Virus record (IMG/VR): IMGVR_UViG_2049941000_000043
Source: an uncultured virus (IMG/VR IMGVR_UViG_2049941000_000043)
Lineage: Duplodnaviria > Heunggongvirae > Uroviricota > Caudoviricetes
Strand: one strand, 5' to 3'
Length of the DNA stretch: 20,000 nt
This document shows, piece after piece, positions 5,318 to 19,950 of the stretch. The translations under genes and the position numbers were made by a program. The notes under the pieces are model-generated. The model ran no database searches and was not told the DNA's origin. It saw only the letters and a list, made by a program, of their open reading frames with translations. Within the stretch, counting starts at the first letter, position 1; every line of letters begins with the position of its first letter.

Positions 5318-6658
5318 ATGGCTTCAAATCCCTATGTAAACAAGGTTGTATATGGAAATTCAACCCTGATTGACTTGTCACAGGATACCGCCACGCAAGC
5401 AGATGTCGCACAGGGGAAGTATTTCCACTTGCCCACAGGCGAACGGGTGCAAGGTACTGCATCAGGCGGCGGTGGTACTGGCGGTATCACCCAAGACCAA
5501 GACGGCTACCTTGTCCTGTCCCCAGACGGGGGCGGTGGTGGCGGTGGTGTAGGCATCCCCGTGTTTACGGCAAGATATGACTCAAATTCTGACCTTGAAT
5601 CATTTTCTTGCAGTATGACCTATGCGGAAACATTGGCTTACTTTGACGGAGGAAATCAGGGTTCTGCAAAATTTATAGAATTTGACGAAGACGAAGAAAA
5701 CCCCGGAGAATATTTTGAGTATAGCAATGCTTGCGCAATGGATATAGACGATTGGGAAGCACAAACCCCAAACATAATATGCAGAACAGTTGATGCCTAT
5801 GGTTTTCCTGTCGCAGAATTTACATACTATCCGAATGGAACGCTTTCCACCCCGGACACCGCAGACATTTACGAGTTTCCGACATTAACGCAAAATGGGA
5901 ACTACTATCCAACGCAAGGGAAAGTGTATTCGGGTGTGTATGTTAATGTAACAGGCGCAAGTGACCCCAATTTTAAGGCTGTGATTGCGAGGACGAGTGC
6001 TACACCAACTCTGCCAAGCGATTTGACAACAATTGGAGCGTATGCGTTTTATAGTTATGATACACTTGCAATTACTGCTTTGCCAAGTTCTGTAACATCA
6101 ATAGGAATGTTTGCGTTTTACGGCTGTCACAACTTGGCATTGACAACATTGCCAAGCACTATAACATCAATAGGTACATCTGCATTTCAAGATTGTGAAA
6201 ATTTGACAACAATAACTTGCAACGGAATTATAACAAACCTTGGCAGTAAATGTTTTAATGGTTCGTCTTCACATCCAATGTCATTGCAAACGGCTCACTT
6301 CCCTTATTTAGCAACAGCGAGTAATTTTCCACAGGCTTTTGGTTCTCCAAGTGCTTCGACTGCTTGTAAGCAATTAACATTGCTTGATATTGGGTCTCCT
6401 AACGGAATTGCTGCCGGAGCATTTAATTATTGCAGTAAGTTGCAAACACTAATAATACGGCGAACATCTGTTTGTTCACTTGCTAATGTTAGTGCTTTTG
6501 GATACACTCCGTTCCGTGGAGAAGGTGGGTTAACTGGAACTGTATATGTGCCGTCATCGTTAATTTCTTCGTATCAAACGGCGACAAACTGGAAAACACT
6601 ATATGATGCCGGTACACTAACATTTTCTGCTATTGAAAATAGCATATATGAATTGTAA
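5318..6658 (+). CDS. Fibre-like protein with BspA-type leucine-rich repeats (LRR_5)
   Basis: Repeats 'LPSDLTTIGAYAFYSY', 'LPSSVTSIGMFAFYGC', 'LPSTITSIGTSAFQDC' and the C-cap 'VYVPSSLISSYQTATNW'. N-terminus is paralogous to the 4725 ORF. Confidence 0.85.
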   Translation: MASNPYVNKVVYGNSTLIDLSQDTATQADVAQGKYFHLPTGERVQGTASGGGGTGGITQDQDGYLVLSPDGGGGGGGVGIPVFTARYDSNSDLESFSCSMTYAETLAYFDGGNQGSAKFIEFDEDEENPGEYFEYSNACAMDIDDWEAQTPNIICRTVDAYGFPVAEFTYYPNGTLSTPDTADIYEFPTLTQNGNYYPTQGKVYSGVYVNVTGASDPNFKAVIARTSATPTLPSDLTTIGAYAFYSYDTLAITALPSSVTSIGMFAFYGCHNLALTTLPSTITSIGTSAFQDCENLTTITCNGIITNLGSKCFNGSSSHPMSLQTAHFPYLATASNFPQAFGSPSASTACKQLTLLDIGSPNGIAAGAFNYCSKLQTLIIRRTSVCSLANVSAFGYTPFRGEGGLTGTVYVPSSLISSYQTATNWKTLYDAGTLTFSAIENSIYEL

Positions 6659-10463: not shown

Positions 10464-10492
10464 TTGACAAGTGCAAGTTGTAGCCTTACAAT
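10464..10492 (+). promoter_or_regulatory. SigA-type early lytic promoter
   Basis: TTGACA (10464-69), 17 bp spacer, TACAAT (10487-92), upstream of cro. Confidence 0.8.
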
Positions 10493-10524: not shown

Positions 10525-10725
10525 ATGACGATGGATCTGAAGACAGCCAGAGTGGCGGCGAAGATGACGCAAGCGGAAGCAGCCGCCAAGCTGGGGACGA
10601 CCACGGCAAGCCTGTGCCGATGGGAGCGAGGGGAGAGAACACCGAAGGTGACCACGTTCTTCCGGCTCTGTGCATTGTACGGAGTCAGCCCTTCGGACAT
10701 TTTTATGCCTTGGATGCAAGGGTAA
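10525..10725 (+). CDS. Cro-like HTH regulator
   Basis: 'ARVAAKMTQAEAAAKLGTTTASLCRWERGERTP'. RBS GGAGGTG. Confidence 0.85.
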   Translation: MTMDLKTARVAAKMTQAEAAAKLGTTTASLCRWERGERTPKVTTFFRLCALYGVSPSDIFMPWMQG

Positions 10726-10770: not shown

Positions 10771-11001
10771 ATGAACAGAGGCGACGAGAAGATCCGGGAG
10801 GTTTTCGCCGGCTGGAAGGCAGTAAATCAGCTGACCGCGCAGGACGCGGCGGCGCGGACGAAGATCCCGGAGAGGACATGGCAGAGACGGCAGAAGGACT
10901 TCGGAACGATGACCCTCGATGAGTTCCGGAAGCTGGTAGAAGCAACACGAGCCACGGATGAGGACATCATCCGGATGGTAACTGGAAGGAGAAGAACATG
11001 A
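10771..11001 (+). CDS. Hypothetical HTH-like protein
   Basis: 'LTAQDAAARTKIPERTWQRR...MTLDEFRKL' resembles an XRE-like HTH. RBS AAGGTG. Confidence 0.6.
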   Translation: MNRGDEKIREVFAGWKAVNQLTAQDAAARTKIPERTWQRRQKDFGTMTLDEFRKLVEATRATDEDIIRMVTGRRRT

Positions 11002-11162
11002 TCCTGGAAGCATTGATTATCCTTTTCGGCCTGTTCGGGCTGGGAGTAGTAGGCGGTCTGGAGCGCGGCCTGCTGGGCATCGGAGCAAGCATCATCCTCT
11101 GGATACTGACGGCGGCAGCCATCACGATCCTCGTGAGCATCCGGAGAGCAGTGCGGCGGTAA
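10998..11162 (+). CDS. Small membrane protein (54 aa, not in the ORF track)
   Basis: MILEALIILFGLFGLGVVGGLERGLLGIGASIILWILTAAAITILVSIRRAVRR*. RBS AAGGAG, ATGA overlap, two TM-like segments. Confidence 0.7.
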   Translation: MILEALIILFGLFGLGVVGGLERGLLGIGASIILWILTAAAITILVSIRRAVRR

Positions 11163-11508
11163 TGCGTGGCGCAGCAGTGCATTGGTAATGCGTGGACGGC
11201 GAAGGCCATCCCATGCACGGATAGCGGGGGCGCAGCAAGGCATGGATTTGCAACGGCGAAGTGAGCACTGCGATGGCATTGAAGAGCATCGCCATGGCAT
11301 GGCAGTTCACAGCAATGACGTGACAGCAGAGGCAAGGAGGAGCACTGCCGCGAGCGGCACAGAGATGAGCGGATTTGCGAAGGCTATGCGCGGGATCGCG
11401 ATGGCTATGCGTAGACAGGAGAGGCGTAGGCATAGCTTGGCCTCGATGGCAACGGCGAAGTTTGGAACAGAAAGCAAGGGAATAGAACTGCGTTGAGTAG
11501 AAAGGAGG
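11147..11508 (+). repeat. Degenerate pentamer (NG[C/A]NN) array 1, candidate non-coding guide RNA
   Basis: Example 11331-11380: ggcaa ggagg agcac tgccg cgagc ggcac agaga tgagc ggatt tgcga (10 pentamers in phase). Tracts are reset by +1/-1 nt slips and usually restart at GGC. Confidence 0.75.
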
Positions 11509-11512
11509 ACAC

Positions 11513-11731
11513 ATGAAGACGATGGCACAGGTAGACAAGATCATCGCGCACATCCTGGCATATGGCAGCATCAGCCAGCTGGAGGCGTTCCAGCTGTACG
11601 GATGCTTCCGTCTGGCCTCGCGGATCTGCGACCTGAAGCGAGCCGGCTACAAGATCGGCAAGACCATGGAAGAGGGCAAAAACCGCTACGGAGAGCCGGA
11701 ACGGCACGCCCGCTACTTTCTCATCAAATGA
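11513..11731 (+). CDS. Winged HTH protein (HTH_39-like)
   Basis: 'GSISQLEAFQLYGCFRLASRICDLKRAGYKI'. RBS AAAGGAGG. Confidence 0.75.
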   Translation: MKTMAQVDKIIAHILAYGSISQLEAFQLYGCFRLASRICDLKRAGYKIGKTMEEGKNRYGEPERHARYFLIK

Positions 11732-11748: not shown

Positions 11749-12342
11749 ATGAAGGAAATGACAATTCGCATCACATTCACGGAGGATCTCCTCGGATCTT
11801 CCAGCAACGATCCCCATCTGCACGAGAACTACATAGCCAGCAAAGCTCCGGACGCATGGAGCACCGCCGAAGAGGTCGAGGCCCTCGGCATCGATGCGGT
11901 AGTCGAGAACGGCAAGACCATTTTTCCGAAGGACACGGACGGCACGCCCATCTTCTGGGACTACCAGATCAAGGGATACTTCAAGGAATCCTGCAAGGCC
12001 CTGTCCAAAGTGCCCGGTACGCTGTCCAGCAAGCTGAAAGCCTACAAACAGCAGATTGACCTGCGGATCTTCCCCGCACCCCGCCGGATCAGGATCACGG
12101 AGACCGGCAAGCGGTACGACCTGCAGAGGCCTCTCCGGGCCTCCACGCCGATGGGCGAACGCATCGCACTGGCGAACAGCGAGACGATCCGCGCCGGAGC
12201 TTCCATCGAGTTCACCGTGCGCCTGCTGGTAGACGATGACGCGAACCTTGTCCGCGAGTGGCTGGACTACGGAGCACTCCACGGTATGGGCCAGTGGCGC
12301 AACGCCGGTTACGGCAGATTCACATGGGAGGAGATCGCATGA
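11749..12342 (+). CDS. Stand-alone RAMP / Cas7-like RNA-binding protein (197 aa)
   Basis: N-terminal strand 'TIRITFTEDLLG', 'P.FWDYQIKGYFKES' (cf. RAMP 'IPGSSLKG..R'), 'SETIRAGASIEFTV', and a C-terminal glycine-rich loop 'GMGQWRNAGYGRF'. RBS AAAGGAG, ATG 11749. Confidence 0.7.
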   Translation: MKEMTIRITFTEDLLGSSSNDPHLHENYIASKAPDAWSTAEEVEALGIDAVVENGKTIFPKDTDGTPIFWDYQIKGYFKESCKALSKVPGTLSSKLKAYKQQIDLRIFPAPRRIRITETGKRYDLQRPLRASTPMGERIALANSETIRAGASIEFTVRLLVDDDANLVREWLDYGALHGMGQWRNAGYGRFTWEEIA

Positions 12343-14597: not shown

Positions 14598-14959
14598 ATA
14601 GCATCAGCGTTATAGGCAGGCTCACGGCAGATCCGGAGCTTCGGAAGACACAGAGCGGCATCCCGGTGGCCTCGTTCACCCTGGCTGTGGACAGGCCCCA
14701 TGTGAAGGACACCACGGACTTCTTCAGCTGCGTGGCATGGCGGCAGACCGGCGAGTTCGTCGCCCAGTACTTCACCAAGGGCAGAAAGATGGGCGTGACC
14801 GGCTCCATGCAGTCCAGGAAGTACGAAGACAAGGACGGCAACAAGCGCACCGTCTGGGAGCTTGTGGTGGATCAGGTGGACTTCTGCGACAAGAAGACCG
14901 ACAGCCAGCCGGCAGACTTTGAGCCGGTTGAGGTGGACGATGGGGAGCTGCCGTTCTGA
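14594..14959 (+). CDS. ssb: Single-stranded DNA-binding protein
   Basis: 'GRLTADPELRKTQSG..VASFTLAVDR', acidic tail 'DDGELPF'. Confidence 0.95.
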   Translation: MNSISVIGRLTADPELRKTQSGIPVASFTLAVDRPHVKDTTDFFSCVAWRQTGEFVAQYFTKGRKMGVTGSMQSRKYEDKDGNKRTVWELVVDQVDFCDKKTDSQPADFEPVEVDDGELPF

Positions 14960-15810
14960 TGGCAGAGAGGAGAATGTTCGCGAAGACGATCATCGACAGC
15001 GACGCCTTCCTCGATATGCCGGCATCGGCGCAGGCCCTCTACTTCCACCTCGCCATGAGGGCCGACGACGATGGGTTCATCAACAACCCGAAGAAGGTGA
15101 TGCGGATCGTCGGCGCGTCGAACGATGACGCGAAGATCCTGCTGACGAAGCGGTTCCTGCTTGAGTTCGATTCCGGCATCATCGTGATCAAGCACTGGTG
15201 GATGCACAACTACATCCAGAAGGACAGATACAAGCCGACCGTGTACCAGGAGGAGCGGGCGCAGCTCTCCAAAAAACCGAACGGCGCGTACACCTTCGGA
15301 GAGGGTGAAAAACTCTTGGATACAGAATGTATACAAGATGTATCCAAAGTGGAAGCACAGGATAGGTTAGGTAAGGATAGAGATAGAGATAGGTTAGAGT
15401 TAGAGTTAGGTGAGAGTAAGAGAAAGATAGACAGTACTGTCAATCTTGCAGACACGCGCGCGCGAGATCCGTTCTCCGCTTTTGTGATGAATCAGGATGA
15501 CCAGGACTTGACGGATGCCATCCTCACTTGGCAGTCGGAGATGGCTGGCAGCGGGTCACCGCTTTCGCCGAAAGAACAGGGAGAGATCCTGGACAAGCTC
15601 CGGCTGGAGTTTCCTCGGGCGGAGTGGCTGCCAGCGATCAGAAGAAGCGCGGAGCGGAAGTGGCGCACCGTCTACCCTCGGAAGGAAGACAAGAAGGCCG
15701 TGGCACAGAAGAAGCAGAAGGACGCATGGAGCGAACCTGTGCCGGCAGAGGAGACGGAACGGCTGCTCCGGAAGATCAAGGAGATGGAGGCGTGGAATGA
15801 GACTGATTGA
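14959..15810 (+). CDS. Phage replication initiator (replisome organizer)
   Basis: 'MAERRMFAKTIIDSDAFLDMP.SAQALYFHL.MRADDDGF', 'VIKHW..HNYIQKDRY'; central low-complexity linker. Confidence 0.85.
   Translation: MAERRMFAKTIIDSDAFLDMPASAQALYFHLAMRADDDGFINNPKKVMRIVGASNDDAKILLTKRFLLEFDSGIIVIKHWWMHNYIQKDRYKPTVYQEERAQLSKKPNGAYTFGEGEKLLDTECIQDVSKVEAQDRLGKDRDRDRLELELGESKRKIDSTVNLADTRARDPFSAFVMNQDDQDLTDAILTWQSEMAGSGSPLSPKEQGEILDKLRLEFPRAEWLPAIRRSAERKWRTVYPRKEDKKAVAQKKQKDAWSEPVPAEETERLLRKIKEMEAWNETD
15316..15432. repeat. Putative replication origin (iterons) inside the initiator gene
   Basis: TGGATACA / TGTATACA / TGTATCCA at 11-bp spacing (15317, 15328, 15339) forming a dyad, followed by purine-rich GATAGA/GTTAGA repeats. 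Confidence 0.5.
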
Positions 15811-18351: not shown

Positions 18352-18747
18352 ATGGCACTACAAATGAGCATCCCGGACATCCTGAAGGAGTACCGTGAGG
18401 CGAGAGACAAGAAGGCGCAGATCCCGATCCTGGCTGACCAGAACCAGGTGAAGCCGTGGGAGATGGCGAAGATCCTCCGGGCGAACGGAGCGGACGTGGA
18501 CGCACGGTGGTACAAGTCGCCGCAGCAGAAGAAGGAAGAGCGGGACGAGAGAGCCGAAGAACGTGCGGCACTGGTAGCCGAACAGATGGTCAGGATCAAG
18601 GAGGAGCGGGAAGCCAGGAACGCCGCCAAAGCGGACGTGCAGTGGCTGAAGGAGAGAGCGGAAAAGATCGCGGAGAGAACAGGATCAGATCCGTGGGAAC
18701 TGTTCGCCACCGCAGTCATGTGGCTGACCGCCACCGGGATGCTATGA
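18352..18747 (+). CDS. Hypothetical protein
   Basis: RBS AGGAGG; 'ILKEYREARDKKAQIPILADQN' N-terminus. Confidence 0.65.
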   Translation: MALQMSIPDILKEYREARDKKAQIPILADQNQVKPWEMAKILRANGADVDARWYKSPQQKKEERDERAEERAALVAEQMVRIKEEREARNAAKADVQWLKERAEKIAERTGSDPWELFATAVMWLTATGML

Positions 18748-19139
18748 CGAAGGAACGCTTGCGGAGGTACATCTGGCTGAAGCAGGAGTGCCGGCAGCTG
18801 CAGGCGTACCTCGAACGCACGATGAACGACATGGCCTCCGTCTCGTCTCCACGGCTCACAGGGATGCCGCACAGCACGGACACCCACGGACTGGACGAGA
18901 TAGTCGTGAGATACGAAGAGATCGTCAGCAAGTACGAGAAGCGGCTGAAGCTGTACCAGAAGGAGACGCTGGCCATCGAGCAGGCCATCGAGGGGCTGAA
19001 AGATCCGCGCCTTCGACTGCTGATGCGGTACAAGTACATGGACGGACTGAAGTGGGACACCATCGCGGATCTGATGCACTACGAGGTGCGGTGGCTGTAC
19101 ATCCTGCACGGGCAGGCCCTGCAGGAGGTCGGCAGCTGA
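18744..19139 (+). CDS. ArpU/RinA-like late transcription activator
   Basis: ATG 18744 (ATGA overlap); 'SP.LTGMP', 'IEQAIE.L.D...RLLMRYKY.DGLKWDTIA..MHY.......LHG.AL'. Confidence 0.8.
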   Translation: MTKERLRRYIWLKQECRQLQAYLERTMNDMASVSSPRLTGMPHSTDTHGLDEIVVRYEEIVSKYEKRLKLYQKETLAIEQAIEGLKDPRLRLLMRYKYMDGLKWDTIADLMHYEVRWLYILHGQALQEVGS

Positions 19140-19425
19140 AAAGAGAAGGTGAAGAGAGGCCCTGCGCGGGACGAGCAAAGTCGGAACGAGATGCAACGGC
19201 ATAGTTTGAATGGCCATAAAAGCACCGCCGAGGCACTGCATTGACACGAAGGCGGCGCACGATGCGTATGCAAAGGCGAAGAAAGGCCAAGCTATGGAGC
19301 AGTAAGAAATGAACGCCCGGCAAAGGCATAGCTTGGATTGGAGTGGCAGCGAAGGGCACCGGCAAAGATGAGAGGAGAAGTGATTAGCAACGGTTCGGCG
19401 CGATGAGCATGGCGTTGGCAAGAGT
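19140..19425 (+). repeat. Degenerate pentamer (NG[C/A]NN) array 2, candidate non-coding guide RNA
   Basis: 19325-19359: ggcat agctt ggatt ggagt ggcag cgaag ggcac; +1 nt; 19361-19390: ggcaa agatg agagg agaag tgatt agcaa. Same grammar and strand as array 1. Confidence 0.7.
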
Positions 19426-19457
19426 TCATATTAATGCACAAAAGAACGTGGTATAAG
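19422..19457 (+). promoter_or_regulatory. Putative activator-dependent late promoter
   Basis: Extended -10 TG-G-TATAAG (19449-19457) with no good -35, downstream of the ArpU/RinA-like gene and upstream of HNH. Confidence 0.5.
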
Positions 19458-19462
19458 GGTAC

Positions 19463-19545
19463 CGTGGGAAGTCTGCAAAGACGGAACACGCTTCATGTTC
19501 TTCTGTTCTCCGCTCTACGAGGCTCCGGGAAACCGGGGCCTCAAC
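19463..19545 (+). ncRNA. Candidate structured small RNA / late leader with anti-SD tract
   Basis: 5' stem CGTG-ggaa-GTCT-GCAA-AGAC-ggaa-CACG, pyrimidine tract CTTCATGTTCTTCTGTTCTCC, 3' hairpin GAGGCTCCGG-GAAA-CCGGGGCCTC. Both loops are GNRA. Confidence 0.45.
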
Positions 19546-19602: not shown

Positions 19603-19950
19603 ATGAAAAAAGGGGAGAATCCCCGAAGTAAGAACGGGAACCTCAGAAGAAAGCACAGGGCCCGGTTGAAAGCCATGGGAGCACCGTGCGGCATCTGTGG
19701 TGGAAGACTGGGCCCGATCCATTACGACGAGCCATCAGATGCAAAGCATCCTCTGAGCTTCGTCATAGACGAGATAAAACCAGTAAGCCGGTGGAGGGAG
19801 TTCGGATACCCATCCCCTCAAGCCGCCGCCCAGGACTGGAACAATCTGCAGGCAGCTCACTACTGCTGCAACGTAGCAAAGCGAAATCATGTACCAGAAG
19901 ACCGGCAGAAGATCGTGAAGAAAATGACAGTCAAGGACGGGGCCTGGTGA
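19603..19950 (+). CDS. HNH endonuclease (packaging-associated)
   Basis: 'CGICG', 'IDEIKPVS', 'NLQAAHYCCN..K'. Position after the late promoter. Start abuts an N gap. Confidence 0.8.
   Translation: MKKGENPRSKNGNLRRKHRARLKAMGAPCGICGGRLGPIHYDEPSDAKHPLSFVIDEIKPVSRWREFGYPSPQAAAQDWNNLQAAHYCCNVAKRNHVPEDRQKIVKKMTVKDGAW

Follow-up and report, generated by a model that had tools for sequence, protein, structure and literature searches.

What does a stretch of phage DNA specify when it harbors no credible gene and a G recurs at nearly every fifth base? The question is raised by positions 11147-11508 of the window, the whole 20,000-nt stretch of DNA from an uncultured virus that is analyzed here. These positions fall within a 350-nt gap that has no credible gene of its own and is flanked by a 54-aa ORF (10998-11162) on one side and a winged-helix gene (11513-11731) on the other. 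A preliminary description of this DNA, made from its letters alone, had reported in-phase pentamer tracts that are punctuated by slips of one base, and had suggested that the slips may delimit individual guides or processing sites. The observation is confirmed and the reading appears to be largely right, with the part that concerns guides or processing being partly supported. As will be argued below, the stretch is very probably a VIPR system's vrRNA array, and its carrier a siphovirus-like temperate phage sampled from the gut of cattle.

VIPR systems, CRISPR-like devices described in 2026, are a discovery only months old and, in the available part of the literature on them, are characterized in two clades of Proteobacteria phages. 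They encompass a phage-borne ancestral RAMP protein, called Vipr, together with vrRNAs of 9-16 GGY/NN repeats and a structured tail, and they act against rival phages and satellites, according to the part of the preprint that describes them (10.64898/2026.04.26.720920).

The window is a temperate phage region, with genes for tail, lysin, integrase, CI- and Cro-like, Gam-like, Sak, SSB, DnaD-like, late activator, and HNH proteins, and the public runs that contain it are cattle-gut metagenomes. Between positions 1 and 10128, genes for tail proteins, a BspA-type LRR protein (5318-6658), and an amidase-LysM lysin are followed by an integrase gene on the minus strand and then by the early region; this order indicates that the end of the late region and the start of the early region meet within the window, as they would in a record that is circular or circularly permuted. 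At 15374-15423, inside the gene for the DnaD-like helicase loader (14959-15810), a 17-nt unit is repeated in tandem (2.9 copies), with shorter repeats of 6 and 11 nt nested in it; these may represent the iterons of an origin.

Array 1 and its five-base period

The repetitive features of the window are as follows.
11143-11505, plus strand: pentamer array 1 (candidate vrRNA array), 70 units of N-G-(C/A)-N-N grouped into about 11 modules, each of which starts with an N-GG-M-N-N six-mer
11157-11208, plus strand: 26-nt spaced duplication, made up of the module at 11157-11182 and the start of the module at 11183
19137-19426, plus strand: pentamer array 2, with the same grammar as array 1, 6.8 kb downstream of the vipr candidate

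The first 20 nt of array 1 overlap the 3' end of the 54-aa ORF. Within 11147-11508, pairs of G separated by lags of 5, 10, and 15 nt number 73, 68, and 66, compared with 50.9, 50.2, and 49.6 expected from dinucleotide shuffles (z of 4.90, 3.95, and 3.61, respectively). At none of these lags was the observed count matched by any of 2000 shuffles, and G-G pairs at lags 4, 12, and 18 are depleted. The Fourier spectrum has a peak whose power is 26 times the variance. The peak falls at 5.1 nt rather than at 5.0 because of the +1 slips, and at short range, as judged by the lags between G residues, the period is exactly 5. A period of 3 is absent from the stretch, which is rich in G and A (G 0.37, A 0.27, C 0.21, T 0.15).

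The units were delineated with a phase tracker, a Viterbi model in which slips of +1 and -1 are permitted. It parses 11143-11505 into 70 units, comprising 55 five-mers, 11 six-mers, and 4 four-mers, with a log-likelihood of -444 against -523 for the best shuffle. The anchor G is found in 66 of these units (94%), where 200 identically fitted shuffles gave a mean of 70% and a maximum of 79%. The landmarks of the preliminary description are all in place. The five slip sites that it named (tgcaa-c-ggc at 11249, tgcga-t-ggc at 11269, tgcga-a-ggc at 11376, cgcga-t-ggc at 11397, and ggcaa-c-ggc at 11448) account for five of the 11 six-mers in the parse; ten in-phase pentamers are found at 11331-11380 and six at 11479-11508; the 26-nt spaced duplication is present at 11147 and 11173; and GCAACGGCGAAGT recurs at 11250 and 11449.

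Searches for known elements returned little. Rfam, at the gathering score, has no match anywhere in the window, array 1 included, and the predicted RNA fold of array 1 is no better than that of shuffles (z of -0.95 on the plus strand and -1.22 on the minus strand). Array 1 is not reported by Tandem Repeats Finder, since its units are too dissimilar, and a strict nine-unit DGMNN pattern is matched neither in the window nor in the related loci, since slips break up the long tracts. A blastn search in distant mode with 11100-11560 against 50,697 phage records gave no match, array 1 is not found in the nearest virus record, and nothing relevant on a 5-nt periodicity in phage or prophage intergenic DNA was found by keyword in the literature. 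An array detector, trained on a profile of five arrays (the two of the window and three from the first viral loci), called only arrays 1 and 2 in the window, none on its minus strand, and none in five shuffles of the window.

Array 2 is flanked by the gene for the late activator (about 18747-19139) and that for the HNH endonuclease (19603-19950), with no vipr gene beside it. It shares GGCATAGCTTGG with array 1. Its G signal at lag 5 over 19200-19500 has a z of 4.1, which is reached by none of 2000 shuffles, and the phase tracker places the anchor G in 53 of its 57 units. Array 2 is the less regular of the two, with 6 six-mers and 7 four-mers among these units. Past the array, at 19508-19531, lies a strong hairpin, GAGGCTCCGG-GAAA-CCGGGGCCTC, which has a GAAA loop and no T-run, and bases from 19557 on are N-masked.

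A possible origin for an RNA copy of array 1 is found upstream.
10464-10492, plus strand: promoter-like site ahead of the Cro-like gene, with TTGACA and TACAAT 17 nt apart, found by consensus scan only
Because the same type of scan finds no terminator-like site between this element and the array, save for a weak one at 10680, the site may be the source of a transcript that runs through array 1. Four assembled contigs from an RNA library (run X19) fall on the array region, at 11197-11565; they were rejected as evidence of transcription, as they could be carry-over of DNA.

Modules, boundaries, and divergence of the arrays

The grammar of the arrays was derived from a set of 96, namely the two of the window and 94 from related loci, all of which lie on the strand of vipr. 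At the loci, arrays range in length from 88 to 1654 nt, with a median of 437.5. Their interior units in the full set comprise 7629 five-mers, 1478 six-mers, and 187 four-mers; nearly all slips are of +1 and add a second G, giving six-mers of the form N-G-G-(C/A)-A-N. The double G is carried by six-mers only and not by five-mers. Among 1441 five-mers from 14 arrays (those of 11 viral loci and the window), position 1 is mixed (A 0.33, G 0.25, T 0.24, C 0.18), and the anchor that follows is G in 0.94, succeeded by C in 0.56 or A in 0.31.

Six-mers are spaced in a regular manner. In the 96 arrays, successive six-mers are 21 nt apart in 118 cases, 26 nt in 332, 31 nt in 368, 36 nt in 193, and 41 nt in 94, and short spacings of 6, 11, and 16 nt are rare (10, 15, and 23 cases), so the spacing is not geometric. 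A count that requires no model gives the same picture, with GG-GG pairs numbering 716 at lag 26, 767 at lag 31, and 612 at lag 36, against 427, 330, and 285 at lags 25, 30, and 35, and with a second set of peaks at lags 57, 62, and 67. Over 1276 boundaries, the unit before the slip reads N-G(0.99)-C(0.82)-R(0.85)-A(0.62) and the six-mer at the boundary reads N-G-G-C/A(0.94)-A(0.66)-N. The resulting consensus, GCRA-N-GG(C/A)A, cuts the arrays into modules of 21, 26, 31, and 36 nt. From the spacing and the boundary motif together it follows that the arrays are strings of modules of 5n+1 nt, bounded by G on both sides. The modules contain 4-7 units, are mostly of 26 and 31 nt (5-6 units), and follow one another with no spacer between. 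Their lengths also account for the Fourier peak at 5.1-5.2 nt, as 26/5 is 5.2 and 31/6 is 5.17.

The slips of the preliminary description are, therefore, true boundaries, in that their spacing is non-random and they share a common motif that matches the GC-RA-N-GGC it had put forward. Most likely, each module gives rise to one short guide. The punctuation grammar itself is clear and well supported, and may or may not correspond to the 'staggered' vrRNA arrays that are named in the legend to fig. S18 of the VIPR preprint (10.64898/2026.04.26.720920).

The way in which the arrays diverge mirrors this grammar. Two related loci, L006 and L007, are 97.5% identical in their vipr regions and only 88.5% identical in their arrays. 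Between them the anchor G is substituted in 3.3% of cases and the second G of the six-mers in none of 42, and the other four unit positions are changed in 11.5, 14.9, 16.7, and 16.1%, with 1.9% in the flank. A further eleven pairs of arrays behave alike, with 2.3% changed at the G and 13.3, 16.0, 22.2, and 26.0% elsewhere. Overall, about 2-3% of anchor Gs are changed between related arrays, against 10-26% at the other four positions. The substitutions follow the five-base phase and, together with the absence of a period of 3, bear out the earlier statement that codon structure does not explain the period.

Arrays also change by gain and loss. The indels that separate the L006 and L007 arrays are of 1, 2, 1, 5, 5, 1, 1, 10, 26, 21, 30, and 5 nt. 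In contigs of relatives from two other cattle-gut runs (X6 and X7), exactly 26 nt are missing at 11158, which is one duplicated module, and modules therefore come and go as units. This loss, together with the indels of 5, 5, 10, 21, 26, and 30 nt between L006 and L007, supports the proposal that the array grows by duplication of units.

Similarity between arrays is detected by blastn for only 13 pairs among the 96, although the proteins encoded beside them are 47-61% identical. In five pairs (L039/L045, L024/L034, L040/L045, L039/L040, and L055/L071), the first 37-67 nt beside vipr are 85-95% identical and the rest has diverged. These well-kept array starts could be a conserved leader or a first guide.

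The RAMP gene beside the arrays

Two genes follow array 1.
11513-11731, plus strand: 72-aa winged helix-turn-helix gene (Pfam HTH_39, E 2.1e-16), between array 1 and vipr
11749-12342, plus strand: vipr candidate, a 197-aa stand-alone Cas7/Csm3-like RAMP with the G-loop GMGQWRNAGYGRF, 240 nt downstream of array 1

The 197-aa protein has no match in Pfam, PHROG, or NCBIfam. Its structure, predicted by folding it with ten relatives (pLDDT 79.8, pTM 0.74), is matched best in Foldseek by Csm3 of a type III-A complex (6ifl_F, E 3.9e-7), one of 145 matches at E<=0.001. A profile search of PDB sequences gave weak matches on the glycine-rich loop, to a type VII Cas7 (E 0.014) and to Csm4 (E 0.047). By its predicted fold, the protein is a Cas7/Csm3-type RAMP. 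It differs in its setting from the Cas7 backbone of class 1 CRISPR effectors (Csm3 in type III-A, Cas7 in type VII), which is accompanied by CRISPR repeats and other cas genes and works in a 6-nt register, whereas here the register is 5 nt and neither accompaniment is present. Specifically, no cas genes occur among the 34 ORFs (Pfam) and 25 (PHROGs) of the window, nor does it contain a CRISPR array or a repeat with a period >17 nt; both hallmarks of CRISPR-Cas type III or VII, the repeat-spacer array and the multi-gene cas operon, are absent from it.

The association of this gene with pentamer arrays is found well beyond the window. The survey covered 91 loci that encode a relative, 11 from IMG/VR and the best 80 of 146 relatives in species-representative genomes, with protein identities of 47-61% to the 197-aa protein. 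An array lies on the strand of the gene in 86 of the 91 loci and within 150 nt of it in 82, downstream in 67 and upstream in 15. An array was called on the opposite strand in one locus only (L025), where it overlaps the plus-strand call, and in four of the five loci that lack an array call the strongest lag-5 G signal of the locus is found directly beside the gene. Seven of the 91 loci (L007, L022, L052, L064, L073, L074, and L077) harbor a second or third array around one vipr.

No accessory gene is conserved beside vipr, with the commonest neighboring family, a Cro-like regulator, occurring in 25 of 92 loci. The winged-helix gene has a homologue in one of the 11 viral loci and is absent from the 12 commonest neighbor families, and its product shows no similarity to that of the 146-aa gene, taken as vap1, beside the vipr candidate of phage SUSP1. 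It is a possible accessory (vap-like) gene, though one that the clade does not conserve. A relative represented by a 32-kb contig of run X7 has, over 11513-11687, 174 unrelated letters of nearly equal length in place of this gene, and the array and vipr on the two sides remain about 95-97% alike; with the flanks kept and the gene exchanged, this looks like a swapped cassette.

Relatives are found in IMG/VR and in human faecal phage records. By the labels of the records, about 60 of the best 80 of the 146 relatives belong to the Bacillota, mostly Clostridia, and 9 to the Coriobacteriia, the rest coming from bins with other labels. Several loci (L014, L020, L031, L042, L048, L062, L066, L088, and others) come from MAG bins with labels such as Prevotella, Alistipes, Bacteroides, and Mailhella, in many cases on contigs that are short, and the system is also found in the genome of an Eggerthella isolate (L045) and in other Coriobacteriia. 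Either the hosts thus extend beyond the Clostridia, or binning has blurred their range. One MAG contig carries two copies of vipr about 48 kb apart (L076 and L078, at 69347-77964 and 21454-30071), with 809-nt arrays that are 100% identical, and may represent a duplicated prophage or an assembly repeat.

Relation to VIPR systems and the weighing of alternatives

The published part of the VIPR work provides several points of comparison. DNA is recognized through the NN bases, with one target base skipped per unit, and 667 systems of seven types are described, including some with the alternative repeats NNNGG, YNNNG, and NNNNG (10.64898/2026.04.26.720920). Structurally, one Vipr protomer binds each repeat; H17 and D177 read the first G, R138 and W178 the second, and R179 is among the residues that read the pyrimidine. 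The filament is reported to have six subunits per turn when free and five on DNA (10.64898/2026.04.26.720927). A further preprint describes 99 period-5 clusters, of which 21 are non-canonical with a motif repeated 10 times (10.64898/2026.10.21.760802).

The locus described here is phage-borne, has pentamer repeats that flank vipr on its own strand, and combines a fixed anchor with hypervariable positions, all of which are features of VIPR. With the type II system of SUSP1 (Vipr, vap1, and vrRNA1-4), so far as the available text of the preprints describes it, the locus has in common a phage-borne, stand-alone RAMP of about 195 aa with W-R in its G-loop, five-base repeat RNA genes that flank the RAMP gene on the same strand, and an alternation of fixed and fast-changing parts within each unit. 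However, the anchor in SUSP1 is GGY, whereas here it is xG(C/A) with only the G fixed. In place of 9-16 repeats with a structured tail, as the preprint text gives them, there are modules of 4-7 units that lack a tail and are linked by a +1 slip, and arrays reach up to 1654 nt. Neither the canonical GGY anchor nor a structured 3' tail (pseudoknot) is found in the arrays of the window, and there is no homologue of vap1, if the 146-aa gene of SUSP1 is taken as such.

The SUSP1 locus was placed by its GGY/NN tracts, and a 195-aa protein, ALH47069.1, lies between its arrays. An HMM search of the SUSP1 record with the clade protein profile gave no match. With hhalign, an 11-sequence profile of the clade aligns to ALH47069.1 over 169 columns at 25% identity, with an E value of 0.0037 and a probability of only 8.9%; the alignment is collinear and spans both proteins, pairing the G-loops GxGQWRN..G.F and GVGDWRP-RFGRF. 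In this low-confidence alignment, D177-W178-R179 of SUSP1 correspond to the invariant Q182-W183-R184 of the clade and H17 to S/T17, such that D177 and H17 are Q and S/T here. The contacts to the first G would thus be lost and those to the second G and the pyrimidine kept, which fits an anchor reduced from GGY to xG(C/A).

Likenesses are also found among the less canonical forms. The unit profile fits the alternative YNNNG/NNNNG classes of the preprint as these are described there. As far as figure legends convey, the alternative-repeat and staggered VIPR arrays and the non-canonical clusters have a degenerate anchor that ends in G, as here, and in the staggered arrays the end of one vrRNA coincides with the beginning of the next, neighbors being related by 1 nt, which is also how 5n+1-nt, GG-bounded modules would look. 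The non-canonical clusters (10.64898/2026.10.21.760802) differ in that their motif is described as repeated 10 times, against modules of 4-7 units. The locus is, most likely, a further example of the known VIPR kind, in a non-canonical and tail-less form, and not a new category.

If so, the array would be transcribed on the plus strand with the early operon, as is suggested by the family to which it would belong. Vipr would polymerize along the RNA, one protomer per five-base unit, and each protomer would hold the fixed G, prefer a C or A next to it, and keep the variable bases available for reading DNA. At the GG boundaries the RNA would be marked off or cleaved, to give guides that each span about one turn of the filament. 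By analogy with the characterized type II system, the ribonucleoprotein would then bind and silence matching DNA of competing phages or prophages.

It is conceivable, though we regard it as doubtful, that the gut clade uses a code of its own. In such a code a single G would serve as the anchor, as many as four bases per unit would carry information, and guides of 5-6 units (about one turn of the SUSP1 filament) would lie head to tail and be cut or delimited at GCRA-N-GG(C/A)A; its rule for reading DNA would be unlike the published one of two bases followed by one skipped. Under this code, a 1.6-kb array would hold some 50-60 guides.

Targets were sought with six choices of guide positions in 594,246 nt (0.59 Mb) of related phage DNA, under 24 exact-match rules (0-3 skipped bases) and 18 seed-and-extend rules (0-2 skipped bases). 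Within this DNA, no rule raised guide-derived patterns above reversed or shuffled guides, and the top score for the analogue of the canonical rule, 19.5, was reached by 5 of 20 shuffles. The seeds were exact gapped matches with 12-16 specified bases and are blind to targets of single 26-31-nt modules; if each such module is a separate guide, the test has little power. Hits obtained under a rule of four bases followed by one skipped were rejected, as they stem from an unmasked homologous array end in L007.

As a VIPR locus, the window and its 146 relatives in species-representative genomes would form a large branch of these systems in the prophages of gut anaerobes. The branch is set apart by the reduction of its anchor, by a corresponding change in the two residues reported to read the first G, and by its tail-less, punctuated arrays, features that may point to a further targeting rule. 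It would represent a natural experiment on how Vipr reads RNA and on the minimum length of a guide.

Several other explanations of the arrays can be weighed against the VIPR reading. An improbable one, and at its most plausible for array 2, is that Vipr-type proteins do bind the arrays, which however serve as decoys or redirectors and not as guides for the phage that carries them. Stand-alone vrRNAs that capture the VIPR machinery of a rival have been reported in satellites and phages, and array 2 is both distant from vipr (6.8 kb) and less regular. Array 1 and most arrays of the clade, however, abut a vipr of their own (82 of the 91 loci), and additional arrays around one vipr, as in seven loci here, are matched in SUSP1 by vrRNAs on both sides of its genes. 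Less probable still is a landing pad on RNA for some other oligomeric RNA-binding protein, unrelated to the RAMP gene. The model for this is TRAP, whose binding sites are GAG/UAG triplets with 2-3 nt between them. Five-base units with an occasional six-base one resemble the spacing of such sites, and the RNA of the array lacks a stable fold, so that with the TRAP sites of Bacillus trp leaders there is, by analogy only, a short conserved element every 5-6 nt in unstructured RNA. Yet the motif is a different one, no TRAP-type protein was identified in the window, and arrays of up to 1654 nt, ten to a hundred times longer than TRAP sites, are far beyond the capacity of one ring; moreover, it is the RAMP gene that the array accompanies in 86 of 91 loci, and other neighbors are not conserved.

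The helical repeat of DNA is 10.4-10.5 bp, and a G at every half turn (about 5.2 bp) might instead mark an element that acts as DNA, through curvature or a DNA-binding protein. We give this very little credence. The Fourier peaks of four of the five arrays analyzed, at 5.1-5.2 nt, are indeed close to half a helical turn, but the 5n+1 modules produce the same value, the period at short range is exactly 5, and the 96 arrays all lie on the vipr strand, which a signal in double-stranded DNA would not require. Clusters of Chi or restriction sites and anti-Rho filler had also been candidates, and were dropped together with the TRAP-like pad and the half-turn element in view of the RAMP gene and the VIPR preprints.

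Finally, the stretch might simply encode protein, since a 104-aa frame is open at 11182-11496, but this is the least credible explanation of all. The frame has no match in Pfam or PHROG, its signal has a period of 5 and not of 3, and the substitutions between related arrays are phased by five bases. Relatives have indels of 1, 7, and 13 nt inside the frame, all three in a single relative, and one of 26 nt at its start, and the 104-aa ORF is therefore not a gene, in keeping with its earlier dismissal. Arrays elsewhere have only plus-strand ORFs of about 60 aa over 1.65 kb. On the minus strand, long spurious ORFs arise because the arrays are poor in T, which leaves their complement poor in A and nearly free of stop codons. 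Examples are a 149-aa ORF in the window (11122-11571) and one of 410 aa in L011 (1229-2461), and gene callers may annotate these as genes.
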